From positions 17,084 to 81,083 of the forward strand of contig CAVRPV010000017.1 of the NCBI GenBank assembly GCA_963723235.1: a stretch of DNA of 64,000 bases, written 5' to 3'. Source of the stretch: an uncultured delta proteobacterium (GTDB lineage Bacteria; Desulfobacterota; WTBG01; CAIYCZ01; CAIRTM01). Positions 12,733 to 31,548 of the stretch are shown here, one piece after another (positions within the stretch are counted from its first letter, which is position 1; each line of letters starts with the position of its first letter). A program made the translations under genes and the position numbers. The notes under the pieces were generated by a model, which saw only the letters and a program-made list of their open reading frames with translations, was not told the DNA's origin and searched no databases.

Positions 12733-12798
12733 ATACAGGGAATCGTAAAACGCAGCCATACTACGCATGGATTGTCGTGCACACATAACAGGCCTGCA

Positions 12799-15925: not shown

Positions 15926-16103
15926 GTTCTGGGGTCTCCCTATACCGGTTTGCTGCAATCGTGTCTTTGTTCTTCTGTATCCGGAGAAGTCTATCAAACT
16001 TTCTCTTTATTTTCAACCTATTCTTGCGGGCCTGATTGACAAAATTATTGAAATGATTAACGTTGATGGAGTCGTAAAAGTTAGAAAATACCTGTTTTTA
16101 TGA

Positions 16104-16222
16104 CGCGCTCGAAAAAAGTTCGTAGACAAGGCGCGCGAATTCGAAGGAATGAGACGTACTTGCCGTACGCCGCAATGACTGAGGATGAAGCGCAACGCAG
16201 TATCCGGACTTTTTACGAGTGT
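16104..16222 (+). repeat. REP/MITE-like element, family R, diverged copy (CGCTCGAAAAAAG...ACTTTTTACGAGTG)
   Basis: It shares the core '...AAGGCGCGCG...GAATGAGACGTAC-N-GTACGCCGCAATGAC..GATGA' with copies R1-R3. Confidence 0.55.
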
Positions 16223-16268: not shown

Positions 16269-17202
16269 ATGGCTGCAAAGGACTATTACAAGGTTTTGGG
16301 TGTTGAAAAAACAGCGACTGTGGCTGAAATAAAAAAAGCCTATAAGGAACTGGCGTTCAAATACCATCCCGACAAAAACCCGGGAAACGCTAAAGCAGAA
16401 GACCGCTTTAAAGAAATCAGCGCAGCATATGCTGTTTTGAGCGACAAGAGTAAGCGCGCACAATATGATCAATTCGGCTCAAGCGGATTTCATCAACGCT
16501 ACAGCCAGGAGGACATCTTCAGGGGCGCGGACCTGAACGATATATTCAGGGAGATGGGATTCAGCAGCAACAACGATATATTCGGTCAGATTTTTCGGAG
16601 GCGGGCGCGGCCGCAGACAACAGACATACAGAATGGATGATATATTCGGTGGCAACAGCGGCGGATTCGCATCCGGCCCCAAGGCGGCCCGCGGTCAGGA
16701 CCTGAGCCTTGAGCTTACAATTGATTTCATGGACGCTTTCAACGGCTGTGAAAAAACCGTCGAATATGTCCATGGCGGCAAAAAACATGGCGTTAAGGTC
16801 AAAGTGCCGGCAGGCATAGCCTCGGGTCAAAAGCTGCGACTGGCCGGCAAGGGTGGGTCGGGTCAGGGTGGATCGGGCGACATGTTTTTTACCATCACAG
16901 TTGCCGCCCACCCCGTTTTCAAGCGCGAGGGCTATGATGTTATTATTGATCAGGAAATAAAAATAAGCGAAGCAGTGTTCGGAACCAGCCTTGAAGTGCC
17001 GACCCCGCACGGCAACCGCACAATCAAAATACCCGCAGGCATCCAGAACGGCACAAAACTGCGCTTAAAAGGAATGGGCATGCCCCATTTCGACAAAAGC
17101 GATCAGGGCCATGCCTATGTCCGGATCTCAGTTACAATCCCGAAACACCTGAGCGAGGCCCAGAAAAAACTCTTCAAGCAGCTCTCAGAAGAAGGCTGCT
17201 GA
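16269..17202 (+). pseudogene. cbpA: CbpA-type DnaJ-family co-chaperone (J-domain plus DnaJ C-terminal domains, no zinc finger), with an apparent +1 frameshift in a T5 run
   Basis: J-domain 'DYYKVLGV...YHPDKN'. Frame 3 ends '...[14 protein letters not shown]'. Frame 1 reads '[21 protein letters not shown]...' and then the DnaJ_C beta domains. The junction is at TTTTT 16591-16595. Span is 934 nt (3n+1). Confidence 0.85.
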
Positions 17203-17288: not shown

Positions 17289-17618
17289 ATGAACTACACA
17301 TCAAAAGCTTTGCTCGTGGTATCGTTGCTCCTGGTGGCGCTCACGACAGCTGCCTGTGAAAAAGAAGGCCGGGAAATTGACAAAACGCTGAACGCCTCAA
17401 AAGAAAAAATTTTGGCATTCACGACAGCTGCCTGCGCACCAAAAGACACCGCTGAAAAAATAGGCCGGGAGATTGACAACGCGGTTACCACCATAAAAAA
17501 AATAGCGGCATTCACGGAAGCAGCCCGCCAGAAAGAAGGCAGCGCTGAAAAAGCGGGGAAGTACATTGACAAAACGTTGAATTCGGCAAAAGAAACAATC
17601 AACGAAGCCACACGCTAG
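17289..17618 (+). CDS. Small lipoprotein with three ~31-aa internal repeats
   Basis: Signal peptide plus lipobox 'LTTAAC'. The repeats are 'TTAAC-EKEGREIDKTLNASKEKILAF', 'TTAACAPKDTAEKIGREIDNAVTTIKKIAAF' and 'TEAARQKEGSAEKAGKYIDKTLNSAKETINEA'. Confidence 0.7.
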   Translation: MNYTSKALLVVSLLLVALTTAACEKEGREIDKTLNASKEKILAFTTAACAPKDTAEKIGREIDNAVTTIKKIAAFTEAARQKEGSAEKAGKYIDKTLNSAKETINEATR

Positions 17619-17797
17619 AGCATTTATCTAAATACTATAGCCTGCGATACAACACCGTCCGTTCGCCCTGAGCCTGTCGAAGGGTGAACGGACAAGGTAT
17701 TTAATACTGAAACCCGTTCATGGTTCGACAAGCTCACCACGAACGGGTGAACATCTTCTTTTTAAAAAGGCTACAAAAAAAAGATAACTACGCTAGA
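17616..17797 (+). mobile_element. Miniature TIR element (MITE-like), copy A, at the left boundary of the accessory island
   Basis: It is the reverse complement of 27259-27438; about 165 of 180 positions are identical in a hand alignment. Termini are TAGAGCATTTATCT / AGATAA..GCT.. It starts on the TAG stop of the lipoprotein gene. Confidence 0.8.
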
Positions 17798-18035
17798 GCA
17801 AATTAATTTTGAGATGTCCGGTCTCGGATTGAAAAACGGAGGCGCCGATCGGCACGTGCCATCTCTCGCGCAGAAAACTTATTTACTTAATTAAGGGCGT
17901 CCCGCTGATGGCCTCAGTGCCCTTCCCTTCGGCAAAACAATTCAACTAATTCAACAACGTCCCCGTAACCTCCCCCGCAGTGTTCACGATTACAAACTGA
18001 AACAAATCAACGAGTTTCTTTGGGGTAGGGGCATT

Positions 18036-18336
18036 TCAGCTTTTGGATGCTTGGGCGTGCAGCTTCAGTCCCAGGGCGTGTACAACCTTGAGGATGGTAT
18101 CAAAGCCGGGGCTTCGATCACCTGAAAGGGCCTTGTACAGGCTTTCACGCGACAGGCCGGTATCACGGGGCTACCTGCGACATGCCGCGGCTGCGGGCAA
18201 TATCGCCCAACGCTTTCGCAATAAAGGCGGCATCGCCGTCGGCCTCTTCAATGCAGGCTTCGAGATAGGCGGCCATTTCTTCAGGCGTGCGAAGATGCTC
18301 TGCAACATCGTAACGGACTAGTTTTTGTTTTTTCAT
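18036..18336 (-). pseudogene. HTH antitoxin ('addiction module antidote' type), frameshifted
   Basis: 'MKKQKLVRYDVAEHLRTPEEMAAYLEACIEEADGDAAFIAKALGDIARSRGMSQVA' is followed, after a +1 shift, by 'RDTGLSRESLYKALSGDRSPGFDTILKVVHALGLKLHA'. The extra base is in the GGGG run at 18167-18170. Span is 301 nt. Confidence 0.75.
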
Positions 18337-18397
18337 CGATTCTTACAAGTTTGCTACCAAAGCAATGGAGCTTTCTTAATAATCACAAACTTAAGCG

Positions 18398-18654
18398 TTA
18401 AGTGTTATTACAAACCTCCATCAAGTGGCGCACCGTGACGCCTTTATCAAGCATGCGCGTCGTTATGCTGTCTGAGCACCCTGAATAGTGACGAGCTCAT
18501 AGACGTACCCCTTCAGAATCGTGCCCGACGATTGGGAATGCCGCTATAGCCGGACTGCTCGAAACGCATGGCCGATCTTTCTCGCGAAAGCTTTCTATGC
18601 CGCCAGAGCAGAAAGAGTACGAAAACTAGTTGTCGTGTCGAATTTGACGTACAT
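18398..18654 (-). pseudogene. Decayed RelE/ParE-superfamily toxin remnant, partner of the antitoxin at 18036-18336
   Basis: It reads 'MYVKFDTTTSFRTLSALAA*KAFARKIGHAFRAVRL*...SGTILKGYVYELVTIQ...' and, in another frame, '...DKGVTVRHLMEVCNNT*'. It has two in-frame stops and at least one frameshift. It sits where a toxin-first module would place its toxin. Confidence 0.35.
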
Positions 18655-19401
18655 TCGTCACTGATTGTGAGCCGAATTGGCTAAACACCTGTCAAGGTTA
18701 ATCTCGAAGAAATCCTGTACTGCTGTCAGCACTGTATTGTCGCCGGGTTTTCAAGTTTCTTCCCTGTAGCTTTTTAACCCCCATCGTTTCGTAGTTAGAT
18801 TTGATACCACCTTTCTTTGCTCGGCAAAGAAAGGTGATACCCCCAAGAAAGCCGCCCCGTGGCACCTTGGCGTCCGCCCAAGGTCGGGATTGCTCTCGCC
18901 GGGACACACGATCGCGGGAACGGCACGAACTCGCACATTCGGGCGCTCAGACAGCGTGTCGTTCGTATCCGCGCTCATGCACCTGTCCTCCGCAGTAGCC
19001 TGCTACGGAGGGTGGACCCGGCTCGGCTGCGCTCCGATGGGGTTTGAAACCCCTGAACCTTGGACTTTTAACCTTCTTGTGACTTTGGACCTTCGACTTT
19101 GGTTTTTGGTCTTCGGTCCTTGTTCCTCCCCCTACCACGATAACGCCAAGGCCTGTCAGCGCTGTTTTCATACCCACCACTTTCATCAATAGATTCACCC
19201 AACGCTTACCCCATAAACCTCTGTACTGGTTACAGTTTCCGTTTGCACATTGAAATAAATAATTATAAGATCATTTGAAATTAACAAGATTAAACCAAAA
19301 CCGCATTGAGGATAACACCGCAATGGCATAGGTTTTATAAGGGGCTTAGACGATAAATTTTAATGAGCGTATTTGGCAGAAATGGGCATGGGTGATTACA
19401 A

Positions 19402-19746
19402 ATGACAATCAATGAATTGACTGAAAAACTCAGGATGTTTGCCAAAGAGCGTGATTGGGAGCAGTTCCACTCGCCTAAAAATCTTTCTATGGCTCTCGCG
19501 GTTGAAACAGCTAAGCTCATGGAACACTTTCAATGGCTTACAAAAGACCAAAGCCTAAATCTTGAAAAGACAACATTAGAAAAGGTTAAACAAGAAATCG
19601 GCGATACTCCAGATTTATCTGCACGTCTTGCTGACCAACTTGGTATTGATCCTCTACAAGCAGCAGAAGAAAAATTGAAAATGAATGCCGCAAAATACCC
19701 GGTTGATAAGGCAAAGGGATCGGCTAAAAAATATACCGACTTGTAA
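19402..19746 (+). CDS. MazG-like all-alpha nucleoside triphosphate pyrophosphohydrolase (dCTPase-like)
   Basis: 114 aa with 'FAKERDWEQFHSPKNLSMALAVETAKLMEHFQW', 'EIGD', 'RLADQLGID' and 'KNAAKYP'. Confidence 0.8.
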   Translation: MTINELTEKLRMFAKERDWEQFHSPKNLSMALAVETAKLMEHFQWLTKDQSLNLEKTTLEKVKQEIGDTPDLSARLADQLGIDPLQAAEEKLKMNAAKYPVDKAKGSAKKYTDL

Positions 19747-19809
19747 GGGCATAAGGCAAACTTGCACCTTTAACAGTAACTTCATTTCCATGCCATAAGA
19801 GTTAATCCA

Positions 19810-21778
19810 GTGATTGTTTACTCTGCTACAAAAGAAAAATTTCAGAACGATATCATGACAAATGATATCGAAAATATCATTTTAGATGCTTTTAAAACCA
19901 CAACGGGCAGACGCACAATATCTTCAGAGATAATGTCATGGAAAAACTCGTTACCATGTATGGGGCGGATTTTACAAGACAATGCAATTCCGAAGGATAC
20001 AGGCGTTGCAATTGAATATCATATTCCGCAATCATCCAAACGCATCGATTTTATTTTGACAGGTAAAGATCATCAAAATAAAGAAGCTGCCGTACTCATA
20101 GAACTTAAACAATGGGACAAAGCCTACCTGACAGATAAAGATGCAATCGTAAGCACACGGTTCAAGCACGGCGAAGTAGAGACACCGCACCCCTCCTACC
20201 AAGTCTGGTCATATAAATGTCTTTTAGAAGATTTTAATCAGACTGTACAGGAAGAAAAAATCGGGCTCTTCCCTTGCGCATATCTTCATAATTATGACCC
20301 TGATGATGTTATTACAAACAAACGCTATAGCAAATATATTCAAAATGCCCCGATTTTTTTAAAAAAAGATGCCCTGAAGTTGCAGCGGTTTATAAAAGAG
20401 TACATCAAATATGGTGACCGCAATCAAATCATGTACCGGATTGAGCATGGCAGGATAAGACCATCAAAAAACCTTGCCGATCAGCTTGTATCAATGCTTC
20501 AGGGCAATCAAGAGTTTGTGATGATTGATGATCAAAAGGTTGTCTATGAAACTGCTCTTAAGCTTACAGGGAAGGCATCTACCACTAAAAAACAGGTATT
20601 GATTGTTGAAGGTGGCCCAGGGACCGGAAAATCTGTTATTGCAATTAACCTTCTTGTTGAACTAACAAAGCAAAAGCTGCTTGCACAATATGTTACGCGA
20701 AATTCTGCACCTCGCTTAGTTTATGAAGCGATGTTAGCAGGTACTTTAACAAGAACGAATATATCTAACATGTTTAAGAGTTCGGGTTCTTATCATGCCA
20801 TAGAAGATAATGTTTTTGATTATTTGATCGTTGATGAAGCGCATAGGCTTAATGAAAAATCAGGTATGTTTAATAACCTTGGTGAAAATCAAATCAAAGA
20901 AATAATCAAGTCAAGTAAATGCAGTATTTTTTTTCTTTGATGAAGACCAGCGGGTAACCCTTAAGAGATATTGGTAATAAAGAACAAATTCGCCAGTTTA
21001 CAAAAGAATCTAATGCGGATGTTTTGGAGTGTGGACTCGAATCTCAGTTTCGTTGTAATGGTTCAGACGGGTATCTTGCCTGGCTTGACAATACATTACA
21101 AATAAGAGAAACGGCGAATGAAAAACTTAGTACGGATTAATATGATTTTCGTATTATTGATAGTCCTTTGAAATTACATAGTTTGATCCGTGAAAAAAAT
21201 AGAGAAAACAATAAGGCACGTATCTGGTGGCGGGGTACTGTTGGAAGTGGGTTAGCAAAAAGAATCCGGTTCTTAAAGATATTGTTATTGGTGATTACAA
21301 GGCGACTTGGAATCTTGATAGCGACGGGCAGGTATGGATAATTAAGCCGGATTCAGTGAATGAAGTGGGCTGTATTCATACTTGCCAAGGGTTGGAAGTT
21401 GACTATATCGGAGTTATAGTAGGCCCGGATTTGATTGTGCGTAACAATGAAGTCATTACCCAGCCCCTTGAGCGTGCATCTTATGATAAGTCAGTTCATG
21501 GGTGGAAGAAAAGGATGAAAGAAAAACCCCATGAAACAAAGAAGATGCTCGATGATATTATTAAGAACACCTATCGCACACTTATGACCCGTGGGCAAAA
21601 GGGTTGTTATGTTTATTTTGTCGATCAAGAAACGCGGCAATATTTCGAAGCACGCCTTAAGTTAAATGCAGAGAGCATGGATGCTGTTTTGCAAGAAGCA
21701 TGTTGCAATCAACAGCCTTTTAGACAGCTACCAGTTGAAGAAATAAGGCCTTACGAGAATTGTGTGCCCTTGTGTTGA
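19810..21778 (+). pseudogene. DUF2075-type protein with a nuclease-like N-domain and a P-loop ATPase/helicase core, multiply disrupted
   Basis: N-domain 'AIEYHIPQSSKRIDFILTG...AVLIELKQW'. Walker A is 'EGGPGTGKSVIA' and Walker B is 'LIVDEAHRL'. Motifs then continue across frames: 'IFF|DEDQRVTLK|DIGNKEQ...ESQFRCNGSDGYLAWLDNTL...STD*YDFRIIDSP...KARI|VAGYCWKW...CQGLEVDYIGVIVGPD...TRGQKGCYVYF'. Frame changes are at ~20927-20938 (T8 run), ~20963-20967 and ~21224-21227. An in-frame TAA is at 21138-21140. Confidence 0.8.
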
Positions 21779-22236
21779 CTTTAGAGCAGCAGCCGGACAT
21801 TTTAGTGATGAGCAACAGGTAACATCATGGATCAATGGTCAGGACGAAACGGAGATATCAGGAAACGACTTGGGTTGAGTTGCCGGATGTTTTTCGACCT
21901 CAACGAGATTTGTTTGTTGCCCAAGTTGTCGGTGAATCCATGAACCGTCGCATACCAAACGGCTCATGGTGTCTGTTTCGTTTGAATCCTGCAGGTTCTC
22001 GCCAAGGGAAGATAGTTTTGGTTCAGCATCGGGATATTGCAGATACTGATACAGGTGGGCATTACACCGTCAAGCTGTATGAAAGCAGAAAACAGGAAAA
22101 GGTGGACGGTAGTTGGCTCCATTCATCGATTGTTTTGCGACCTGATACTACAGCATCGGGGTATGAACCAATCATATTAAGCGAGGATCAGTGCGATTAT
22201 TTAAGGGTAATCGCAGAATTTATTGCAGTTTTGTGA
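21774..22236 (+). pseudogene. LexA/S24-type serine peptidase domain. It apparently continues the DUF2075 reading frame as a C-terminal fusion, and is frameshifted.
   Basis: One extra base at 21773 joins '...PYENCVPL' to 'VDFRAAAGHFSDEQQVTSW...', which contains a LexA-like AAG cleavage-site motif. After another shift (21835-21876) it reads 'WVELPDVF...FVAQVVGESMNRRIPNGSWCLFR...GKIVLV...YTVKLY', with the catalytic Ser in 'GESM' and Lys in 'VKL'. Confidence 0.7.
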
Positions 22237-22277
22237 GCGGCTGTGATTTTTGGTGGAATTTTGGGTAATTCGAAATG

Positions 22278-22297
22278 CGGGGACACCATACTAATTT
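22278..22297 (+). repeat. 20-nt direct repeat CGGGGACACCATACTAATTT, the left flank of the EEP/PD-(D/E)xK gene pair
   Basis: 19 of 20 positions are identical to 23755-23774. Confidence 0.7.
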
Positions 22298-22436
22298 TAA
22301 CTGTCCTTCGGTTCAAGAATGGGTATGCCCCCACTGATTTCCACCATTGTGCAGGCGCGGTGAAATATCAAAATTAACAGGCATATCAAATGCGGGGAAT
22401 AAAGGGGCGCAGCCCCCTATTGCCGAAGGATTGCCA

Positions 22437-23193
22437 GTGAGAATCGTTTCTTGGAACTGCAACGGTGCTTTTCGGAAGAAATTTTCGCAGCTTGCAGCAA
22501 TTGACGCTGACGTCTACATCATTCAAGAATGTGAAAACCCTCAATTGCTAGTCAACAAGAGTAAGGAGTTTCTCGAATTCTCCTCGAATCACCTTTGGCA
22601 TGGCGAAAACAAGAACAAAGGTCTCGCAGTTTTTGCGAAACCTGATCTTGGGCTTAAAAAAGTGACGCTTAACCATGATTGGCATGGTAGATCTCTCAAG
22701 TGGTTTCTTCCTTTTTACCTTTCTAAAAGCAATCAAATATTTAAGTTCTTGGGGCTTTGGAATCATAGTGCTGGCGCAAAGGCGTTTGCCTATATTGGTC
22801 AGTCCTGGCTATTCTTCCAGAACAACAGAGAATTCTTTAGGAATGCCATTATCGCTGGCGATTTCAACAGCAACAAGATATGGGATTCGTGGGATAGATG
22901 GTGGAATCACACAGACTATGTAAATGAACTCTCAAATCTTGGTCTATGCAGTCTTTATCATTTCATTTATGGCCAAGAACAGGGGACGGAAACTCAACCA
23001 ACTTTCCTTTTGCAGAGAAACGAAAGAGAAGAAATACCACATCGACTACATTTTTACCGATGCGGAAAAAGCACAGCGGACTACAGAGTTCAAGATCCAT
23101 GATTTCAAGGACTGGATAGAACTAAGTGACCATGTGCCAATCGAATGGAATTTTAGTGAGCGGTCTGAAGGGAAGCTGAATGGACAACGATGA
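22437..23193 (+). pseudogene. Endonuclease/exonuclease/phosphatase (EEP) family protein, with an apparent +1 frameshift near 23010-23040
   Basis: GTG start at 22437 with AAGGA 8 nt upstream. Motifs are 'RIVSWNCNGAFR', 'DVYIIQECE' and 'IIAGDFNS'. In frame 1 it continues 'KEKKYHIDYIF...ELSDHVPIEW'. Span is 757 nt (3n+1). Confidence 0.8.
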
Positions 23194-23705
23194 AGATTAT
23201 GTACTTGATAAATGCAAAGGAAGCATCTAGAAAAAAATCACTCGGTGAACTGGGTGAGCTCTTTGCGATAAAGACTCTCGTTGACAATGAATTCGACAAG
23301 ATCAGAAACCTAAATGACGACCATAGGAATGAGGCCTTTGCAGACATAGTTTGTGAAAAGAATGGCGTGAGGTATGTGGTCAGCGTAAAGGCAAGAAACA
23401 AATTTCAACTGGACGGCAAACTGAATAGTCGGTACAACTTGGGAACCAATGCGTATGAAAAGGCGCGATCAGCGGAGTACAAACATGGTGGAATTGCTCA
23501 TTGGATGGCGATCCAGTTCGACCTTCATGAATATTCAGTCTATTTTGGGTCGTTGAGCGAGTTGAATTCGGCCAAAGCGATACCGATTGACAAGTGTGAA
23601 GCTGGTATCATTGGCAAAAAACTAGTTGACAGGAAAAGGCACTATTTTGATTTTGGATACTACAAGAACAAAATGAGGAGAAATCTAATATCAAAATCAA
23701 CTTGA
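23190..23705 (+). CDS. Small PD-(D/E)xK-like (restriction-endonuclease fold) protein
   Basis: 171 aa with 'GELGELFAIKTLVDNEFDKIRNLN...FADIVCEKNGVRYVVSVKARN', which resembles the G-E...D...(E/S)-x-K pattern of YraN/Hjc-like nucleases. Its ATG overlaps the EEP stop (ATGA). Confidence 0.55.
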   Translation: MKIMYLINAKEASRKKSLGELGELFAIKTLVDNEFDKIRNLNDDHRNEAFADIVCEKNGVRYVVSVKARNKFQLDGKLNSRYNLGTNAYEKARSAEYKHGGIAHWMAIQFDLHEYSVYFGSLSELNSAKAIPIDKCEAGIIGKKLVDRKRHYFDFGYYKNKMRRNLISKST

Positions 23706-23754
23706 CTCAGGCCGTTCGTCCTCCGTAGGTAACTTTTCAATGGAGGGGGAAATC

Positions 23755-23774
23755 CGGGGACACCATACTGATTT
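23755..23774 (+). repeat. 20-nt direct repeat CGGGGACACCATACTGATTT, the right flank of the EEP/PD-(D/E)xK gene pair
   Basis: 19 of 20 positions are identical to 22278-22297. Confidence 0.7.
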
Positions 23775-23786
23775 ATCCAAATCTTA

Positions 23787-23900
23787 CCGGGGTCGGACCT
23801 TGCCCGGCGGTGTTAAGCTGTTGAATCTGCTGATGTGTTCATTGCCGCACGGCACGTTTTTAGTGCTTAGAAGCCCTTTTTCAGTATCAAAACCCGCGCT
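23787..23900 (+). repeat. Island repeat family T, copy 1 (CCGGGGTCGGACCTTGCCCGGCGGTGTTAAGCTGTTGAATCTGCTGATG...)
   Basis: It is near-identical over about 110 nt to 24781-24890 and shares its first ~65 nt with 25829-25895. Confidence 0.8.
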
Positions 23901-23946
23901 TCGCAGGACCACACTACAACTGCATTCGATATGGGGCCGTTGCTGA

Positions 23947-24348
23947 TCAGTGCGGAAGGGTTTGTAAACCGCAGTATTTTTCGATCGGGATAAAGTCCTT
24001 ATCGTTGTGGAGAAGCGCCACATCGTGCTCAATGGCCGTGGCAGCGATCATGCAGTCAACGGGTGTTCGTATCGTGATGCCCCTGCGGCGTAGATCGCGA
24101 TATATCTCCGCTGACCGCACATACACCGCATAGTCCATGGGAAGAAAAATCAGGTTGGCAAGCATGTCGCGCGTTTGCCGAAATTCGAAATCATCCCTGA
24201 TACCCTGAAGCAGTTCAGTGAGAATCACGCCGCACAGGCAGATGTCCTCCCTGTCCTTAATGAGCTTTTCAAGGGTCCCTACATGCTGCCCGGCAGGGTG
24301 TGGCGAAAAAAAATCTATCCAGACCGTGGTATCAACCAGAACCATCAT
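23947..24348 (-). CDS. vapC: PIN-domain toxin VapC
   Basis: 'MVLVDTTVWIDFF', 'TELLQG', 'VDCMIAATA' and 'LLHNDKDF' supply the PIN acidic residues. It overlaps the vapB stop by 4 nt. Confidence 0.92.
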   Translation of the reverse strand: MMVLVDTTVWIDFFSPHPAGQHVGTLEKLIKDREDICLCGVILTELLQGIRDDFEFRQTRDMLANLIFLPMDYAVYVRSAEIYRDLRRRGITIRTPVDCMIAATAIEHDVALLHNDKDFIPIEKYCGLQTLPH

Positions 24349-24548
24349 CCAGTACGTCCCCGCCGCAATTCATCCAGATCTCCGTCCCAGTGAATCCTGC
24401 CTTTGAGCTGTAGCAACTTTGTCTGCCGTTCATGGCGGAGCAGTTCCCGCAGGGCATGGTCTATAAGGCCCTTTTGGGTTTTAATACCCGTGGCTTTTAT
24501 GCAATCGCCGATAAGTTTTTCGTCAAGCACTATGTTAGTTCGTTTCAT
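24345..24548 (-). CDS. vapB: VapB-family antitoxin
   Basis: 67 aa: 'MKRTNIVLDEKLIGDCIKATGIKTQKGLIDHALRELL...'. It lies immediately upstream of vapC. Confidence 0.88.
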   Translation of the reverse strand: MKRTNIVLDEKLIGDCIKATGIKTQKGLIDHALRELLRHERQTKLLQLKGRIHWDGDLDELRRGRTG

Positions 24549-24571
24549 CCCAGTCCTCCTTTGATGTTTGT

Positions 24572-24605
24572 ATACACATTATATTATAATTTATGTGTAT
24601 GTCAA
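24572..24605 (-). promoter_or_regulatory. Putative vapBC promoter with an overlapping operator palindrome
   Basis: On the minus strand the pattern is TTGACA (24600-24605), a 16-nt spacer, then TATAAT (24578-24583). A perfect 8-bp inverted repeat ATACACAT (24572-24579) / ATGTGTAT (24593-24600) spans the spacer and -10. GGAGG RBS precedes the ATG. Confidence 0.6.
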
Positions 24606-24780
24606 TGGGTAAGACCGGATAAATAATCACCGTTGATTCGGCTGCATGTTCGATTGATGGTTTTTAGAGCTTTTAACTGTCTTTATCTAGTCGCAGGACG
24701 CGGCGTATTCTTCCAGGTTTGTGTTGATTTTTGTGGTGAGGCAGGCTCGTTCTGAAAAGTATTGGAGAGGGATAGGTTGA

Positions 24781-24890
24781 CTGGGTCGGACCTTGCCCGG
24801 CGGTGTTAAGCTTTGAATCTGTGAGTGTTCATTGCCGCATGGCATGTTTTTAGTGCTTAGAAGCCCCTTTTCAGTATCAAAATCCGCGCT
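24781..24890 (+). repeat. Island repeat family T, copy 2
   Basis: 'CTGGGTCGGACCTTGCCCGGCGGTGTTAAGCTTTGAATCTGTGAGTGTTCATTGCCGCATGGCATGTTTTTAGTGCTTAGAAGCCCC...' is in the same orientation as copy 1. Confidence 0.8.
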
Positions 24891-25188
24891 GTAAAATCCA
24901 CACCTTTTGCCTGCCTGCTTTCGCCCTTGTTTCTGCCGAACATTGTGTGCTATTCCTTTTGATGCCTGCCGAGAAACGTATTTAAAAAGAAAGGGTTGCA
25001 ACCGTTTTCAGACGAACTATGTCACGATGTTTCACCCGTCTAAGATTCATGGAATTTTTCCCGCCGGTAAGCGACTATCCTTGGTAATGGCACCATAAAG
25101 ATTGGCAATAATAAGTGACAGCGCCCTTTGTTTTTACTATCCATGCCATGCAGCAGCATACACGGGCAATTATAATGTAATAAACTGC

Positions 25189-25217
25189 TTGTAACGCATT
25201 AGGTTACATGTTATATA
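25189..25217 (+). promoter_or_regulatory. Possible higBA promoter/operator
   Basis: TTGTAA (25189-25194), a 17-nt spacer, then TATATA (25212-25217). The inverted repeat TGTAAC-N7-GTTACA lies inside. The ATG at 25225 has no obvious SD, so the transcript could be near-leaderless. Confidence 0.35.
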
Positions 25218-25224
25218 TGTAGAC

Positions 25225-25503
25225 ATGATTAAATCATTCAGGCATAAAGGGCTGGAAAAGTTTTTCCACCATGATGACCGCAGTAAAATAATTCCAGACC
25301 ATGCCCCCAGGCTGGCCCGCATACTTGACCGCCTGGACGCATCAGCAGGCCCCGATGACATGAATCTGCCCGGCTTTAAACTGCACCGGCTTTCGGGCAA
25401 AGAGAAGGACACCTGGTCGGTCTGGGTAAACGGCAATTGGCGTGTTACCTTTCAATTTGAAGGAGCCGATGCTGTGATCGTCGATTACAGGGATTATCAC
25501 TGA
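25225..25503 (+). CDS. higB: HigB-type toxin ('plasmid maintenance system killer', RelE/ParE superfamily)
   Basis: 92 aa: 'MIKSFRHKGLEKFF...NGNWRVTFQFEGADAVIVDYRDYH'. Confidence 0.9.
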   Translation: MIKSFRHKGLEKFFHHDDRSKIIPDHAPRLARILDRLDASAGPDDMNLPGFKLHRLSGKEKDTWSVWVNGNWRVTFQFEGADAVIVDYRDYH

Positions 25504-25525
25504 CTATTTTTAAGGAGCACACATC

Positions 25526-25819
25526 ATGATTAACAAACGCAAACCCACACATCCCGGAGAAGTTTTGCGGGAGGATGTTTTGGTCCCTCTGCAAATTACG
25601 ATAACGGAAGCTGCAAAACGTTTGCGCACGTCGCGGAAAACACTGTCTGCAATTTTAAACGGCAGGGGGCCTGTGACACCGGACATGGCCGTAAAAATCG
25701 CCCTTGCAACAGGCACTACGCCGGAAAGCTGGCTGTATATGCAGTCAAAACTCGACCTCTGGCATGCCGGGCAAAAGAAAATTAACGTTGGAGAATTGCG
25801 CGCCGCAGTTGGCGCATAG
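25526..25819 (+). CDS. higA: HigA-type HTH (XRE) antitoxin
   Basis: 97 aa: 'THPGEVLREDVLVPLQITITEAAKRLRTSRKTLSAILNGRGPVTPDMAVKIA'. Confidence 0.9.
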   Translation: MINKRKPTHPGEVLREDVLVPLQITITEAAKRLRTSRKTLSAILNGRGPVTPDMAVKIALATGTTPESWLYMQSKLDLWHAGQKKINVGELRAAVGA

Positions 25820-25828
25820 TGTGTCTGA

Positions 25829-25895
25829 CCGGGGTCGGACCTTGCCCGGCGGTGTTACGCTGTTGAATCGGTTGATGCGTACATTGCCGCACGCA
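25829..25895 (+). repeat. Island repeat family T, copy 3 (5' part only)
   Basis: 'CCGGGGTCGGACCTTGCCCGGCGGTGTTACGCTGTTGAATCGGTTGATGCGTACATTGCCGCAC' begins 10 nt after the higA stop. Confidence 0.75.
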
Positions 25896-25909
25896 GGGTA
25901 CTTTTCAAG

Positions 25910-25984
25910 CCCCCTTTGGCAAAGGGGGTTGGGGGATTTGTCGGAAGCATGAAATCCCCCTGTATCCCCCTTTATAAAAGGGGG
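25910..25984. repeat. Three consecutive G5/C5-A3/T3 stem-loops ('KGG'-type REP cluster)
   Basis: The stem-loops are CCCCCTTT-GGC-AAAGGGGG (25910-25928), GGGGGATTT-N12-AAATCCCCC (25931-25960) and CCCCCTTT-ATA-AAAGGGGG (25966-25984). Confidence 0.7.
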
Positions 25985-26172
25985 AAATCGCCTCATGGCG
26001 CACCTACACACTGAGGAAGTTTACCGGCCGGAAAGCGGCTATGATATACGCCTTTGTTATCGGGCTCTGTTTTGATCGAGATAATAAGGAACAGGAGGTA
26101 TAGGGGACATCCTTTAAAGGCCAGGCCTTAGTGATGAACAGCCGTGTCAAGGTGGCGTAAGGTGCAGTTGAA

Positions 26173-26802
26173 TTACCAGAAAACAGGTTTTTCAATCCAG
26201 CCGTTTTCTGTGCTGCGAAGCTTTGCCGGGAATTGAGCTTTTTGCAATAGTATGTTCGGAAGGGTTTTAGCTTTATCTGCGGCTGCACGAATTTCCACAG
26301 CCGCCCCTCTTGTTGGATCGTTAGCCGGAACGTAAACAATAACCTCACGGTCCGGCCTGTTTCGCTTCAGCTCCCTGATAGCAGGAACAAGATCAGAATC
26401 ACCACTTACCACTACAAGCCTTTCACAGCTATCGTTGAAAGCATCCGCAAGCATATGCACAGCGATATTAACGTCTGTTCTTTTTTCCTCCTGCATTCTG
26501 AAAAACCTGCTGCCGATATGCCTGCATGCCGGCACAAGGCATTTGACTGATTTTGTTTTAAATTTGCCGAGGTAAATGTGGACCAGGGGAAGTGTTGCAA
26601 GGGCTAAGAGGTATGTTTCCTGATTGCTCCGGTGAGAGCCATCGATGAGCGCCGTAAAATATTTTATTGCCTGAATGTCATCATCCTGCCTTAAAAGCGT
26701 AAAAAAGCGCCCCAGGTTCAACCATTTATAAGGGGTTCCTTTGACGGCGCCATAATACAGATTAAACCCATCGATATAAATAATGCTCCGCTTTTTTTTC
26801 AT
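26173..26802 (-). CDS. NYN-domain (LabA-like) protein
   Basis: 209 aa with 'IIYIDGFNLYYG', 'RTDVNIAVHMLADA' and 'LVVVSGDSDLVPAIREL'. Confidence 0.8.
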   Translation of the reverse strand: MKKKRSIIYIDGFNLYYGAVKGTPYKWLNLGRFFTLLRQDDDIQAIKYFTALIDGSHRSNQETYLLALATLPLVHIYLGKFKTKSVKCLVPACRHIGSRFFRMQEEKRTDVNIAVHMLADAFNDSCERLVVVSGDSDLVPAIRELKRNRPDREVIVYVPANDPTRGAAVEIRAAADKAKTLPNILLQKAQFPAKLRSTENGWIEKPVFW

Positions 26803-26896
26803 AGCCCCTCATAAAAAAAATGCACCCGTGTAGGGTGCACAACCGACATTACGTCGGGGAGTCGTCTTTTTTGCCCCGTTTCTTTATATAGGCATT

Positions 26897-27256
26897 TTAC
26901 AATCGTTTGTCAACAGCATTCTTTTCACAGGCCTGCGCGTGGTTATGGCTGCCAATGCGACGATGGTCATTTTGTATTGGGACATAGGTCGGATGATTCT
27001 TGACCGTCAGAAAAACGAAGGCTGGGGAGCCAGAGTTATTGATCGTCTTTCGGCTGACTTGCGTGAAACTTTTCCCGATATGCAAGGGCTTTCACCGCGA
27101 AATCTTAAATACATGCGTGCCTTTGCAGCAGCCTGGCCGTCAAAAGAAATTGTGCAAGAGCCTCTTGCACAATTTCCCTGGTATCACCAGATAGCACTGC
27201 TTGAAAAATGCCGCACCCCCGAAGAGAGGCTGTGGGAAGTTACAGGACGTTGTTGA
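26897..27256 (+). pseudogene. DUF1016/YhcG-family (PDDEXK-type) N-terminal fragment, truncated
   Basis: 'AANATMVILYWDIGRMILDRQKNEGWGARVIDRLSADLRETFPDMQGLSPRNLKYMRAF...PWYHQIALLEK..TPEERLW'. There is no credible start. It ends after ~105 aa, 2 nt before MITE copy B; the family is usually more than 300 aa. Confidence 0.65.
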
Positions 27257-27258
27257 AT

Positions 27259-27438
27259 TAGAGCATTTATCTTTTTTCTGTAGCCTTTTTAAAAAGAAGA
27301 TGTTCACCCGTTCGTGGTGAGCTTGTCGAACCATGGACGGATTGCAGCGTCAAATACGTTGTCCGTTAACCCTTCGCCAGGCTCAGGGCGAACGGACGGT
27401 GTTGTATCGCAGGCTATAGTATTTAGATACATGCTCTA
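27259..27438 (-). mobile_element. Miniature TIR element (MITE-like), copy B, at the right boundary of the accessory island
   Basis: It is the reverse complement of copy A. Termini are TAGAGCATTTATCT ... AGATACATGCTCTA (14-bp TIR with 1 mismatch). Confidence 0.8.
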
Positions 27439-27474
27439 AAAAAATAAGGGGGCATCCTGTACGAGCGATGCCCC
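27438..27474 (-). terminator. Intrinsic terminator of the nfeD-SPFH operon
   Basis: The minus strand reads GGGGCATC-N10-GATGCCCC followed by CTTATTTTTTT. It lies 26 nt after the SPFH stop and abuts MITE copy B. Confidence 0.7.
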
Positions 27475-27499: not shown

Positions 27500-28447
27500 T
27501 TATGGCTTTGCAGAGCCTGCACCGAAGCCCTGCTCAGTGCCCTTCATGACCGTGAGGGCGGAAGCCACCATCGTGGAAATATCGGTAAGGTTCGATGGCA
27601 CGATCATGGTGTTGTTGGTTTTGGCGAGGTTGCCGAACTGCTGGAGGTAGAGCTCGGCCACGCGCAGGTTTACGGCTTGCATGCCGTTGGGCTGGCCGAT
27701 GGATTTAGATATTTCGCCAATGCCGGCGGCGGTGGCCTCGGCCACCAGCAGAATCTCCCGGGCACGGCCTTCGGCCTCATTGATGCGCCGCTGTTTTTCA
27801 CCCTCAGAGCGCAGGATGAACTCCTGTTTTTCGCCCTCGGAGCGGTTGATCTTGGATTGGCGGTCACCTTCCGATTCAAGAATCAGCGCCCGTTTTTCAC
27901 GCTCGGCGCGCATCTGCTTTTCCATGGCCTCGCGGATCGACTGCGGGGGCTCGATGTTCTTCACCTCATAGCGCATGACCTTGACACCCCAGGGATCCGA
28001 GGCTTTGTCAACGGCCTCAACGATGGAACCGTTAATGGTGTCACGTTCCTCGAAGGTCTTGTCAAGGTCGAGCTTGCCGATGACTGAGCGCATTGTGGTC
28101 TGCGCCATCTGCATGGAAGCGAACTGATAGTTATTGATGCCATAGCTGGCGTTTTTGGGGTCCACGACCTGCAGGTACAGTATGCCGTCAACCTCGACGG
28201 GGATATTGTCCCTGGTGATACAGGTCTGCGGTGGCACGTCTATGGCCTGTTCCTTCAGGTTGAGCTTATAGGACACACGGTCGATAAAGGGAATGAGGAT
28301 ATGGAAGCCCGCTTCGAGCGTTGATGAGTATTTGCCCAGCCGCTCTACGATGAATGCGCTTTTCTGCGGCACGATCATAACGGTTTTGAGAAAGGCGGTT
28401 ATGATAAAAATGACCAGACCGGCAAGTATTATTGTTGTAATCGACAT
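27500..28447 (-). CDS. SPFH/band-7 (stomatin/prohibitin-like) membrane protein
   Basis: 315 aa with an N-terminal TM segment, an SPFH core ('IVPQKSAFIVERLGKY...') and a Glu/Arg-rich coiled coil. Confidence 0.9.
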   Translation of the reverse strand: MSITTIILAGLVIFIITAFLKTVMIVPQKSAFIVERLGKYSSTLEAGFHILIPFIDRVSYKLNLKEQAIDVPPQTCITRDNIPVEVDGILYLQVVDPKNASYGINNYQFASMQMAQTTMRSVIGKLDLDKTFEERDTINGSIVEAVDKASDPWGVKVMRYEVKNIEPPQSIREAMEKQMRAEREKRALILESEGDRQSKINRSEGEKQEFILRSEGEKQRRINEAEGRAREILLVAEATAAGIGEISKSIGQPNGMQAVNLRVAELYLQQFGNLAKTNNTMIVPSNLTDISTMVASALTVMKGTEQGFGAGSAKP

Positions 28448-28503
28448 AGTGAAGGAACTCCTTGTATGTGTGGTGTTTGGAAGTAAGTGCTGCGCCAGGC
28501 TGT

Positions 28504-28962
28504 TTACAGGCGCGTAACTTTGAAGCGCAGTCCGTTTCTGTCAATGATTTTTACGCGAGTATCAACTTCGATACTGTCATCGGCCTCGGCATCCCAGGCA
28601 ACTCCGTTGAATTCAACCTTGCCGGGCCGGGCGGGCTCTATGCGGATTGTTACGAGTGCCTCACGTCCGAAAATATCCTCTATATTTTTGCCCGCCGCCT
28701 CCTGCCGTGAGGTTACGTTGCCCAGAAACACGGTCTTGAGCTTTCTGCGGAGCAGTACCAGCAACAGCAGGGATGATACCCCGAAAACCATGAGCTGCGC
28801 AGGCAGTCCGATACCGAATACCAGATAGAACACGGTTACGACCCAGGCACCCAGTCCGAAAAACATCAAAATGAGCGCTGGAGCAAACAACTCGGTTAGC
28901 AGCATGGCAAGCCCTGCGATAAACCAGAGCAATCCAGGATTGGTCACAAGATTTAAAAACAT
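28504..28962 (-). CDS. NfeD-family membrane protein
   Basis: 152 aa with three to four TM helices and a C-terminal OB-like segment 'GKVEFNGVAWDAEADD'. It lies upstream of the SPFH gene, the classic pairing. Confidence 0.85.
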   Translation of the reverse strand: MFLNLVTNPGLLWFIAGLAMLLTELFAPALILMFFGLGAWVVTVFYLVFGIGLPAQLMVFGVSSLLLLVLLRRKLKTVFLGNVTSRQEAAGKNIEDIFGREALVTIRIEPARPGKVEFNGVAWDAEADDSIEVDTRVKIIDRNGLRFKVTRL

Positions 28963-29193: not shown

Positions 29194-30210
29194 CTAACAG
29201 ATACGCGGGAGCTGGTCTGACACGAGAGAATCGAGAATGCGCTTGCCGCGCGAGCGCGTCTGAAGATACACCCGGGGCTGATCACCCTTCGCCTCAGATA
29301 TCTCGCCAATCACGGCGGCATTGTTCCCCAGCGGATGAGAACGCAGCCGGCTGAGCACCGCAGAGGCTGCCTCACGGGCAACAATGAGAACAATCGTTCC
29401 CTCATTGGCAAGATACCATGGACTCATCCCGAGCATCTCACACAGCCCCTCCACGGGCGGTTTCACCGGCATGTCTTGTTCCACCAGCAGCACATCGTGA
29501 CCTGATTTCAAGGAGATTTCATTCATCACCGTTGCCACGCCGCCGCGGGTTGCATCCCGCATGAATTTAACCTCTCCAGGGAACTGCTCAAGAATCGGCA
29601 AAACCAAGTCATGCAGTGATGCACAGTCGCTTGTAATATCGGCCTGTATGTTAAGCTCGCCGCGCGCAAGCACAATGGCCGCACCGTGATCCCCGATGTC
29701 ACCTGACACGATGACAACATCACCTTCTGAAATACGCCCCGTCCCGAGGTCTGTTCCGGGATACAGGCTGCCGATACCGGCAACCGTAATAAAAACACCG
29801 TCCCCTTTGCCGCGCTCCACTACCTTGGTATCCGCTGCAACCACCTCAACGCGGGCAGCCCGACATTCGCGTGAGAAACTTTGGACAATCAGGGAGAGTT
29901 TTTCAATCTCAAAGCCCTCTTCGATGATAAATCCAACCGTCAAATATTTTGGAACAGCGCCGCATACCACCAGATCATTGACCGTACCGCATACGGCGAG
30001 TTTCCCAATGTCGCCTCCGGGGAAAAACAGCGGGCGCACCGTAAACCCGTCTGTTGTGGCTACTAAGCGCTCGCTGCCAAGGGTGACCACTGCCGCGTCG
30101 TCGGCCTCATCAAGCGCGTTACTGCGCAGATGCGGCTTAAAAACCTCATCAATCAGGCGCTGTGTCAGCTTTCCGCCCGAGCCATGTCCTAACGTAATTT
30201 TCGCGCTCAT
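29194..30210 (-). CDS. hypE: Hydrogenase maturation protein HypE
   Basis: 338 aa, AIR-synthase-like, with the C-terminal 'PRIC'. Confidence 0.93.
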   Translation of the reverse strand: MSAKITLGHGSGGKLTQRLIDEVFKPHLRSNALDEADDAAVVTLGSERLVATTDGFTVRPLFFPGGDIGKLAVCGTVNDLVVCGAVPKYLTVGFIIEEGFEIEKLSLIVQSFSRECRAARVEVVAADTKVVERGKGDGVFITVAGIGSLYPGTDLGTGRISEGDVVIVSGDIGDHGAAIVLARGELNIQADITSDCASLHDLVLPILEQFPGEVKFMRDATRGGVATVMNEISLKSGHDVLLVEQDMPVKPPVEGLCEMLGMSPWYLANEGTIVLIVAREAASAVLSRLRSHPLGNNAAVIGEISEAKGDQPRVYLQTRSRGKRILDSLVSDQLPRIC

Positions 30211-30434
30211 GTCAGCCTGTTCACCTCGTCCAGAAGCTCAAGCGTGTCGCGCGCTGAATCCTCATCAAGCTTGGCGATTGCAGAACCGATGTGAATCATC
30301 AGCCAGTCACCGACCTTCAGGTCTTCGTCCGCAATCAGCGCTATCGAAACCGCCCTGCGCACCCCCTGGGTTTCAACCGTAGCCCTGAAAGGGGGCATAA
30401 TTTCCACGATCTGCATTGGAATTCCAAGACACAT
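30207..30434 (-). CDS. hypC: Hydrogenase assembly chaperone HypC
   Basis: It starts 'MCLGIPMQIVEI' with AAGGAGG upstream. The track ORF extends to 30509, but the conserved N-terminal Met-Cys fixes the start. Confidence 0.9.
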   Translation of the reverse strand: MCLGIPMQIVEIMPPFRATVETQGVRRAVSIALIADEDLKVGDWLMIHIGSAIAKLDEDSARDTLELLDEVNRLT

Positions 30435-30436
30435 AG

Positions 30437-31544: not shown

Positions 31545-31548
31545 TATC

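Follow-up and report, generated by a model that had tools for sequence, protein, structure and literature searches.

Two copies of a 180-bp MITE border a strain-variable accessory island in an uncultured deltaproteobacterium

Results

A 180-bp repeat that occurs twice in a 64-kb stretch of deltaproteobacterial DNA (the window, meaning the whole stretch analysed) is a MITE, a non-autonomous and non-coding element. We give a probability of roughly three in four to the reading that the two copies, A and B, are separate insertions of one MITE family and that the island between them was assembled in place and not carried by the MITEs. The TIR-bearing miniature element proposed in the initial annotation is borne out by filled and empty sites in near-identical relatives, by TA flanks and by dispersed copies.

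An inverted-repeat search found only one long inverted pair in the window (17616-17795 and 27259-27438), with arms of 180 nt each that are 92% complementary and separated by 9463 nt. Without gaps, 166 of 180 positions are identical, including runs of 57 and 52 nt. The annotation had placed this pair at 17616-17797 and 27259-27438 with about 165 of 180 positions alike; the repeat stands, while the end of copy A moves to 17795. As it had also described, the same element end, the A-rich 'right' one, faces the island on both sides. Copy A begins on the TAG stop codon of the lipoprotein gene, its first three bases being the stop of ORF 17289-17618, and copy B starts 2 nt past the TGA of the DUF1016_N fragment ORF 26939-27256. 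The other end of copy B touches the likely nfeD-SPFH terminator, a minus-strand hairpin and T-run at 27439-27474 that we read directly; a simple terminator scan missed this hairpin because its loop is 10 nt (Table 1).

Table 1. Features of the island, its borders and the flanking genes (window coordinates)
Feature	Position	Strand	Remarks
DnaJ-family gene	16269..17202	+	two ORFs in window; intact 310 aa in L014
Lipoprotein gene (predicted, 109 aa)	17289..17618	+	three internal ~31-aa repeats; TA target of copy A lies in the stop codon
MITE copy A	17616..17795	+	TA at 17616-17617 and 17794-17795; right TIR degenerate
Palindromic core of copy A	17657..17748	+	pair of ~35-nt hairpin units in inverted orientation, GTCCGTTCGCCCTGAGCCTGTCGAAGGGTGAACGGAC and CCCGTTCATGGTTCGACAAGCTCACCACGAACGGG, variable spacer between
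Native spacer inside copy A	17796..17946	+	contiguous with lipoprotein gene in MITE-free L014
Short motif TAATTCAACAACGTCCCCGTAAC	17947..17974	+	L014 and window diverge directly after motif
Remnant toxin-antitoxin module	18035..18716	-	frameshifted HigA-like 'addiction module antidote' gene; ~90-nt trace of Gp49-type toxin gene
MazG-like gene	19402..19746	+	
Schlafen group 3/DUF2075-type helicase	19810..21778	+	split: ORFs 19810-20940, 21227-21778
S24-peptidase-like ORF and endonuclease/exonuclease/phosphatase (EEP)-family ORF	21835..23102	+	21835-22236; 22347-23102
R repeat copy 1	23782..23900	-	
VapBC module	23947..24548	-	PIN toxin 23947-24348; VapB 24345-24548
R repeat copy 2	24778..24963	-	
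HigBA module	25225..25819	+	HigB-like toxin 25225-25503; HTH antitoxin 25526-25819
R repeat copy 3 (short form)	25824..25893	-	
NYN-domain nuclease	26173..26802	-	PADLOC HEC-09, E 6e-46
DUF1016_N fragment, truncated	26939..27256	+	profile positions 14-111 of 137; PADLOC PDC-S02
Second copy of short motif TAATTCAACAACGTCCCCGTAAC, inverted	27234..27258	-	abuts copy B; begins where DUF1016 homology ends
MITE copy B	27259..27438	-	both TIRs intact; between SPFH terminator T-run and DUF1016 fragment
Hairpin GGGGCATC-N10-GATGCCCC and CTTATTTTTT	27439..27474	-	likely SPFH terminator; conserved in L013
SPFH/stomatin-like and NfeD, conserved pair	27500..28962	-	SPFH 27500-28447; NfeD 28504-28962

The TIRs are about 27 bp long and follow the pattern TAGAGCATNTATCT-N8-TAGCC, with TA at both ends of the element, within YTAR sites. 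This pattern is exact at three of the four ends of copies A and B, against a chance expectation of about 0.04 matches. The fourth, island-facing end of copy A has three mismatches and reads TAGCGTAGTTATCT..., or AGATAACTACGCTA on the plus strand; the left TIR of this copy is TAGAGCATTTATCTAAATACTATAGCC and its degenerate right TIR GGCTACAAAAAAAAGATAACTACGCTA. The terminus AGATA[A/C]ATGCTCTA given earlier is right for copy B and, owing to these mismatches, slightly off for copy A. The element holds no ORF with a known domain (a single overlapping 64-aa ORF has no Pfam match), and no promoter-like site was detected in it.

We compared copy A with its orthologous site in other samples. A contig that is 96.4% identical over 1425 nt (L014, Logan ERR9118890) has an empty site, ...CCACACGCTAGAGCAAATT..., at which the inner and outer flanks meet at one TA: it reads ...GAAGCCACACGC-TA-GAGCAAATTAATTTT... 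and continues with the equivalent of window 17790-17976 (L014 1414-1599, 95.7%). Because the lipoprotein stop codon in L014 runs straight into the DNA that lies just inside copy A in the window (17796-17976), copy A inserted alone into pre-existing DNA. The same site is filled in L015, and site A is polymorphic for the insertion. L014 could in principle represent precise excision rather than a site that was never occupied; either way, the element moved alone. The annotation had called for a search for target-site duplications, and TA is indeed present at both ends; since TA also forms the ends of the TIRs, duplication of 2 bp is readable only from this single empty site, at which the insertion boundary is ambiguous within the 11-nt repeat ACGCTAGAGCA.

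Site B is filled in L013, a contig of 95.5% identity from another sample that has the same SPFH-copy B junction and breaks 59 nt into the element; no empty site for copy B was found among the relatives. A different fragment of the same family lies right at the SPFH stop codon in L044 (92.6% relative), in the opposite orientation, and in L010 (78% relative) a 140-bp member that shares the TIRs but has another core lies between HD_5 and DnaJ (L010 positions 12696-12835).

These sites bear on the composite-transposon symmetry seen in the initial annotation, under which the island was brought in, or is movable, as a MITE-bounded unit by a transposase acting on the two outer TIRs. The geometry, with inverted copies, intact outer TIRs, TA flanks and enclosed low-G+C accessory DNA, would suit such a unit, and MITE-bounded composites are documented elsewhere (PMC13367494, PMC3934969). 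However, the inner flank of copy A is native to the site, because L014 has the lipoprotein gene joined to the first 180 nt of that flank with the MITE absent. Nor are A and B a duplicated pair, because each is 91% identical to the copy in another genome (L023) and the two are 92% identical to each other. In addition, the inner TIR of copy A has decayed, and a TA flank carries no information on joint insertion. No second occurrence of the unit came to light when the island was compared by megablast with plasmids and phages, which returned no hits. We therefore regard a composite origin as very unlikely.

Identical runs of 57 and 52 nt are long enough for RecA-dependent recombination, and recombination between the inverted copies might turn the 9.5-kb segment around, so that both orientations coexist in the population. 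A precedent is the inversion of Correia-enclosed elements in Neisseria, in a report as cited by a review (PMC10969869). Against such flipping, no isomer was seen, the A-side orientation in the window is that of MITE-free L014, and the outer parts of both copies agree with the orthologous sites in L015 and L013, down to a diagnostic T/G at position 9. A HigA-like gene beside SPFH in L039 hinted at an inverted arrangement, but this hint collapsed because antitoxins of that family are 85-95% conserved between unrelated lineages and are present at other places too. Such flipping seems unlikely.

An assembly artefact, in which a misjoin at a repeat put low-G+C DNA of foreign origin between MITE copies that are themselves real, was considered as well. 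The assembly is error-prone, as frameshifts split several conserved genes of the window, and relatives' contigs built from short reads end within the MITE (L013, L015, L038). However, these frameshifts point to indel errors and not to misjoins, and three of the four junctions occur independently in other samples (lipoprotein-MITE A in L015, lipoprotein-inner flank of A in L014, SPFH-MITE B in L013), which makes a misjoin extremely improbable.

The copy-number check in relatives suggested earlier yielded about ten further copies in related freshwater deltaproteobacterial MAGs and metagenomes. They lie mostly between core genes, for example those for DnaK, isocitrate/isopropylmalate dehydrogenase, CheR and MscS, in mixed orientation relative to the neighbouring genes, and their flanks read C/T-TA-A/G in eight of nine cases. 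Full copies of 78-91% identity are present in L004/L023, L005/L034 (two), L022, L025, L030, L032 and L036. Beyond a preference for AT-rich gene ends, these copies gave no sign of enrichment at island borders. A profile search detected only copies A and B in the 64-kb window, and four related or associated contigs, about 60 kb in all, contained no copy, so two copies 9.5 kb apart are somewhat more clustered than random scatter. An autonomous element with matching TIRs was found neither in the window nor at nine genome loci or 23 metagenome loci, and for this reason we infer the transposase family from the TA flanks alone.

Conservation along the element is 90% in the left TIR, 88-92% in the hairpin units and 57% in the spacer. 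The core, a REPIN-like doublet of inverted hairpins, is the best-conserved part; its predicted fold is much stronger than that of shuffled sequence (z -5 to -6), and related cores that lack these TIRs occur in Comamonas, Moraxella and Sphingobium plasmids. Together with a weak, sub-threshold match of the core to an Aggregatibacter sRNA family (Rfam RF02901) and the position of both window copies at gene 3' ends, this would agree with a REP/REPIN-type or RNA-level repeat, spread as hairpin doublets by a RAYT-like enzyme or kept for terminator function or mRNA stability, with incidental TIRs. Yet what varies between samples at site A is the complete element, from one TIR to the other, with its TA flank, and because members with quite different cores share the TIRs (L010, L037, L007, L002), the mobile unit is defined by the TIRs and not by the core. 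Covariation was uninformative (2 of 42 pairs; the covariation term was positive, which is unfavourable), no Rfam family reached its gathering score, and the mixed orientation relative to neighbour genes also speaks against this reading, which we consider quite improbable.

The island itself carries toxin-antitoxin and defence-type genes and differs from strain to strain. The reported drop in G+C is real (16 of 60 nt at 20281-20340, 37 of 60 at 12001-12060) and extends to the island as a whole, at 45.0% versus 54.9% in the rest of the window and 40.8% in its core (19300-23750). This low G+C and the other content carried by relatives confirm the DNA between the copies as accessory and compositionally atypical. 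The DnaJ-to-SPFH interval holds different DNA in every relative examined: the order in L010 is DnaJ-MITE variant-HD_5-SPFH, L039 has other toxin-antitoxin genes after SPFH, and the contig that carries P0011 has unrelated genes in the interval. The DUF2075-type helicase matches the PADLOC models PDC-S41, Nhi and AbiO weakly. We also observed that short R repeats set the toxin-antitoxin modules apart and that several island genes are truncated or frameshifted.

Discussion

In the history that we favour, of separate insertions and an island assembled in place, a transposase supplied in trans would cleave at the TIRs and insert the element at TA dinucleotides; judged from the TA flanks, a TA-duplicating enzyme of the IS630/Tc1-mariner type would be the most likely candidate. 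In this G+C-rich genome, such sites are mostly found at gene ends, in stop codons and terminator T-runs. Copy A entered a CTAG including the lipoprotein stop codon, and copy B would have entered a TA after the SPFH terminator T-run. The 9.5-kb patch would have been built module by module in the DnaJ-to-SPFH interval, the MITEs not being its carriers. The inverted orientation would be one of two equally likely outcomes and could allow occasional inversion by homologous recombination. Transposase type, independence of copy B and mode of island growth are the parts of this history that we infer.

Miniature copies also bracket accessory genes in the Tn3-derived TIME-COMPs and in the 439-bp MITE pair around class 1 integrons of Acinetobacter (PMC13367494, PMC4133298, PMC3934969); in those cases, the whole structure lies within a target duplication or its mobilisation was shown. 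Here, in contrast, an empty site shows that copy A came in by itself, A and B differ by 8%, one of the inner ends has decayed and the flanking TA tells nothing. As in the RAYT-associated REP/REPIN doublets, the core is an inverted pair of ~35-nt hairpins around a variable spacer and is more strongly conserved than the sequence next to it, but the mobile unit is bounded by TIRs and TA, and no RAYT gene was seen. Moreover, near-identical core units span classes of Proteobacteria, which is atypical of lineage-specific REPs. The island resembles defence and toxin-antitoxin islands at variable hotspots in its low G+C, its place between conserved core genes, its different content in each relative and its density of toxin-antitoxin modules and of nuclease and helicase genes matching PADLOC candidate families. 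It differs in that no integrase, transposase, tRNA or direct att repeats were found in it, in its truncated or frameshifted genes and in the R repeats between modules.

Correia/NEMIS of Neisseria, RUP of pneumococcus and Nezha of cyanobacteria are TA-flanked bacterial MITEs, and to our knowledge no transposase has been found for Correia. Like the element described here, they are non-coding and 100-200 bp long, begin and end with TA and carry ~26-bp TIRs. They are scattered through intergenic regions, frequently next to gene ends, are present in some strains and not in others, and form a long hairpin when transcribed (PMC10969869 and general knowledge). The present element differs in its unrelated TIR sequence, in a hairpin-doublet core that also occurs without TIRs in other Proteobacteria, in the lack of a detected promoter-like site and in a copy number that appears low, with a few exact-TIR matches per MAG versus more than 100 copies of Correia. 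It belongs to a known kind of mobile element, of which it is an ordinary case, and its family is present in a different host clade, that of uncultured freshwater 'Deltaproteobacteria' (Syntrophaceae-like).

Anatomy of the inverted repeat pair

A repeat search found a single long inverted repeat in the window, whose two 180-nt arms (copies A and B, see table) are 92% complementary; in an ungapped comparison, 166 of 180 positions were identical, among them unbroken stretches of 57 and 52 nt. The terminal inverted repeat (TIR) pattern TAGAGCATNTATCT-N8-TAGCC was present at all four ends, at three of them exactly, against a chance expectation of 0.04 matches, and was kept in about ten further copies. 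The outer TIRs of both copies match the pattern exactly, and the island-facing end of copy A carries three mismatches, reads AGATAACTACGCTA and terminates at 17795. These results bear out the long inverted repeat with TIRs described in the initial annotation, including the inner terminus proposed for copy B, while that of copy A had to be corrected slightly. The positions claimed relative to the neighbouring genes hold as well: the TAG at 17616-17618, with which copy A begins, is the stop codon of the adjacent ORF, and copy B starts 2 nt past the stop of a DUF1016_N fragment, a junction known from the window assembly alone, and abuts at its other end a hairpin and T-run read from the sequence behind the SPFH gene.

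The element is a long imperfect palindrome, in which two TIRs of ~27 bp surround two inverted hairpin units of ~35 nt and a variable spacer. Conservation is 90% in the left TIR, 88-92% in the hairpin units, 78% in the right TIR and 57% in the spacer. Both as DNA and as RNA, the element folds far better than shuffled sequence. We rejected an RNA-structure reading, since an Rfam search of the element returned no family at gathering score and alifold covariation across ten copies was uninformative. The sole ORF overlapping the element (27140-27334, 64 aa) had no Pfam match. The TIRs, the lack of coding capacity and a TA site found both filled and empty confirm that this is a TIR-bearing miniature transposable element.

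Features discussed in the text, with window positions unless a relative is named
Feature	Position	Detail
Copy A	17616-17795 (+)	
Copy B	27259-27438 (-)	
ORF ending on copy A	17289-17618	
Lipoprotein gene repeats	17357-17599	three, ~93 nt, tandem-like
26-nt motif	17947-17974 (+)	
26-nt motif, inverted second copy	27234-27258 (-)	abuts copy B
Native spacer	first inside copy A	150 nt
Frameshifted HigA-like antidote gene	after native spacer; 18035-18336	split; trace of its Gp49-type toxin
Low-G+C block		MazG-like gene, split Schlafen-g3/DUF2075 helicase (19810-21778), S24-like ORF, EEP-family nuclease
VapBC and HigBA modules		each with a direct R repeat (~70-190 nt) at its boundaries
NYN nuclease		PADLOC HEC-09 match
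Truncated DUF1016 gene	last before copy B	PADLOC PDC-S02
R repeat	23782-23900, 24778-24963, 25824-25893; L042 5686-5752, 8241-8429	
Second MITE subfamily, core ..TCATCTCGACCAAAGGGAGAGATCTTG..	62855-62930; L010 12696-12835; L037 ~520-630	
Short dispersed repeat ..GGCTGTTCAAAAA..CCGGATGCAAGGCGC..	4709-4759, 16095-16134, 53534-53573, 59011-59061	
Neighbours of L005/L034 copies		isocitrate/isopropylmalate dehydrogenase | CheR ... MoaE | sugar transferase
Neighbours of L023 copy		sulfatase; DUF169
Neighbours of L036 copy		DnaK; DUF1844-IspE
Neighbour of L025 copy		arginyl-tRNA-protein transferase
Neighbour of L030 copy		MscS
Split DnaJ	16269-17202	
Split HypD	30437-31544	
Split NiFe large subunit	35465-37166	
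NiFe hydrogenase operon and hypB/D/E/F	29416-40651	between NfeD and HD_5 gene
Periodic repeat families D1-D4	48737-52203	periods ~162 and ~220 nt

A filled and an empty TA site

A search for SPFH homologues assigned the window to a Syntrophaceae-like deltaproteobacterial lineage and supplied near relatives, and a search with the small lipoprotein gave two near-identical matches and no homologues beyond these. Exact-protein look-ups with the SPFH and lipoprotein ORFs of the window found none on record, and it was the homologue searches that led to the relatives. The relative contig L014, which shares 96.4% identity with the window across DnaJ and the lipoprotein gene, reads ...CCACACGC-TA-GAGCAAATTAATTTT... 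at site A and continues into window positions 17790-17976 at 95.7%. This means that L014 has no element at site A and that its lipoprotein gene is followed directly by the DNA which in the window lies just inside copy A. The same site is filled in a further relative, L015; in L013, with 95.5% identity across NfeD-SPFH, copy B is inserted at the same base and the contig ends after 59 nt of it. Within the lipoprotein gene, repeats of 72-76% identity give three ~31-aa protein repeats. In L015/L024 (1417-1843), a response-regulator ORF runs into the final 48 lipoprotein codons at a 14-nt microhomology, with MITE copy A after them; either this rearrangement is genuine or the metagenome contig is chimeric.

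L014 has a single TA in place of the TA-element-TA of the window, a target-site duplication seen at this one site, where the boundary can be placed only to within 11 nt. Of nine full copies, eight are flanked by TA within YTAR. TA duplication is a hallmark of IS630/Tc1-mariner-type transposition and is known in Correia elements too. Because of this hallmark, we infer from the sequence comparison that the element probably moved by a mechanism of the IS630/Tc1-mariner type.

The autonomous partner envisaged in the initial annotation did not turn up: an element with the same TIRs and a transposase was absent from the window and from 32 loci with the TIR pattern, a set that diverged TIRs would escape. 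Among these loci, L028 has two TIR-like ends 1.24 kb apart, resembling an IS of ~1.27 kb, and was rejected as it encloses rpsU and an RRM protein gene. We also rejected L001, L008, L009/L027 and L035, which have ordinary genes alongside TIR-only matches, and L018, L019 and L026, in which chance TIR matches lie inside ORFs. The TIR alone gave only chance-level matches in the plasmid collection. Correia, an accepted MITE family, is likewise not known to have a cognate autonomous element.

Relation of the two copies to the island

A MITE-bounded composite transposon carrying the island, as the symmetry of the two copies had suggested, is a reasonable idea because such composites are documented, examples being TIME-COMPs and a 439-bp MITE pair around an integron (PMC13367494, PMC3934969). 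Copies A and B have the functional-type outer ends that such a unit needs, with an exact outer TIR pattern in both. However, block-wise presence or absence, which defines the documented composites, was not found for them: in L014 copy A alone is missing and the DNA next to it on the island side is retained, so that copy A inserted into DNA that already adjoined the lipoprotein gene, and a duplication around the whole was likewise not seen, the TA flank being uninformative in this respect. Moreover, copies A and B, at 92% identity, are no closer to each other than either is to the copy in L023 (91%), the inner TIR of copy A has decayed, and the island as a unit had no match in plasmid and phage collections, its modules occurring elsewhere piecemeal only, for instance in the contig L042. 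A composite transposon bounded by the MITEs is thus not supported by the sequences compared, and we infer that copies A and B are two independent insertions that happen to bracket the island.

Inversion of the island by recombination between the two copies is possible in principle, and nothing supports it. The orientation on the A side is the same as in the MITE-free L014, and the outer parts of copies A and B agree with the orthologous sites in L015 and L013. In the relative L039, a HigA-like gene adjoins SPFH in the opposite relative orientation. We dropped this as evidence for inversion because the antitoxin family, whose members from unrelated lineages share 85-95% identity and which has different surroundings in L042, is too conserved and mobile to serve as a synteny marker. 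What stands of the initial annotation is its observation, with the MITE and the accessory island; its composite-transposon reading is not supported.

Further copies and their neighbours

Collection scans required exact TIR matches throughout. With one genome per species, the scan gave nine loci, and it returned full-length copies from the Lake Tanganyika 'Deltaproteobacteria' MAG VGSH01 (L004, 91%; L005 with two, 86% and 78%), which carries three full copies on two contigs and a TIR-only match on a third, as well as partial relatives of the element in other deltaproteobacterial MAGs. The same scan of JGI metagenomes gave full copies at 85-89% (L022, L025, L030, L032 and L036) and an end fragment (L038). 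A profile built from ten copies found none in the window beyond A and B. Full copies outside the window lie next to core genes, and the orientation of the element relative to them is mixed, which argues for an intergenic, gene-end MITE and not for an element that marks the borders of islands. In L005, a TAG stop codon is again where the element starts. Another short dispersed repeat is common to the window and the VGSH01 MAG (L004/L023).

The DnaJ-SPFH interval is a repeated target of this TIR family. L044, a 92.6% relative, has a different fragment of the family in opposite orientation right at the SPFH stop codon, and in L010, a 78% relative, a 140-bp member that shares the TIRs but has a different core lies between HD_5 and DnaJ.

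Content and boundaries of the island

The G+C content of the island is 45.0%, against 54.9% for the rest of the window, and falls to 40.8% at 19.3-23.75 kb; the counts of 16 and 37 G+C reported earlier for two 60-mers are exact. In L010, the MITE variant and the HD_5 gene stand alone between DnaJ and SPFH, in L039 other TA genes flank NfeD-SPFH on both sides, and the contig with P0011 has unrelated genes in the DnaJ-SPFH interval. This differing content identifies the segment as a variable toxin-antitoxin/defence hotspot and, together with the G+C content, bears out the accessory, compositionally atypical DNA claimed between the copies. The segment combines the atypical composition and the absence from relatives expected of a genomic island. 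The other marks of an integrase-type island did not turn up: no integrase, recombinase or transposase domains were present in the island ORFs scanned and no tRNA in the whole window, and the bounding repeats are inverted rather than direct as att-type repeats are.

L014 and the window diverge immediately 3' of a 26-nt motif, TAATTCAACAACGTCC..GTAAC, and the inverted second copy of the motif lies at the exact end of DUF1016 homology, cutting that gene short. With three occurrences only, this is a hint that the variable segment is bounded by the motif rather than by the MITEs. The L014 tail past the motif showed no significant homology to either end of the island, as 21/300 and 91/300 shuffles reached scores as good.

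The R repeats sit between the VapBC and HigBA modules, resembling cassette boundaries, and share a conserved 3' core (GGCAA.GAACACATCA.C.GATTCAACAGC.TAACACCGCCGGGCAAGGTCCGACCC.GGTCAG). They also occur in L042, an unrelated 310-kb contig, beside a BrnT toxin gene and small ORFs. Inspected by eye, each R repeat has one GTTAAGC/GCTTAAC box and no partner within 130 nt, whereas integron attC sites pair R'' (RYYYAAC) with R' (GTTRRRY) around each cassette; we therefore rejected an attC/integron cassette array.

Modularity of TIRs and hairpin cores

The modularity of TIRs and cores is the least ordinary aspect of the element. Hairpin units without these TIRs are found, near-identical, in intergenic DNA of Comamonas, Moraxella and Sphingobium plasmids. 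The core scores 22.5 bits against Rfam RF02901 (Aggregatibacter sRNA41), below the gathering score of 97, and the RF02901 consensus has the same CUGAGCUUGcCGAAG/UUCGgCAAGcUCAg pairing as the hairpin units. Other stereotyped cores are in turn found within the same TIR family, in L037, L010, L007, L002 and a degenerate relic in the window. This relic, of the second subfamily, lies just before G+C falls to 45% at 63-64 kb. A literature search with the core DNA and its pseudo-peptides returned nothing relevant.

Because hairpin units occur without the TIRs and the same TIRs carry different cores, the element might be a chimera of a TA-targeting TIR 'chassis' and a captured ~90-nt double-hairpin module that circulates alone across Proteobacteria, although we consider this unlikely. 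In that case, the cores would amount to functional cargo, for instance a module for protein binding or RNA processing, that several mobilisation systems spread, and the MITE pair could also help to invert or mobilise the defence patch between its copies.

Split genes and other variable segments

Several conserved genes of the window, those for DnaJ, HypD, the NiFe hydrogenase large subunit, the DUF2075 helicase and the HigA-like protein, are split into overlapping or adjacent ORFs, and DnaJ is intact in L014 (310 aa). These are likely indel errors of long-read assembly rather than real pseudogenes, and 'fragment' calls inside the island are therefore to be read with care. The NiFe/hyp segment is missing in L013 and in L043, a relative that retains a 210-nt 3' remnant of hypE, which implies that these two relatives carry a deletion of ~11 kb. 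The D1-D4 segment, probably a gene for a repeat-domain protein, is absent from the syntenic L010.

Significance

The elements constitute a previously undescribed but conventional TA-flanked MITE family. They add a recently active family to a poorly studied, uncultured freshwater deltaproteobacterial clade and provide a clean pair of filled and empty sites from environmental populations. They also caution against reading a composite transposon from nothing more than inverted MITE copies on either side of an island. The practical value is modest: the element is a marker of variation between strains, and short-read assemblies break at its sites. Further study may be worthwhile only for the hairpin cores common to distant Proteobacteria and for the R repeats that separate TA modules. 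For the organism, the interval from DnaJ to SPFH is a variable hotspot of toxin-antitoxin and defence genes.
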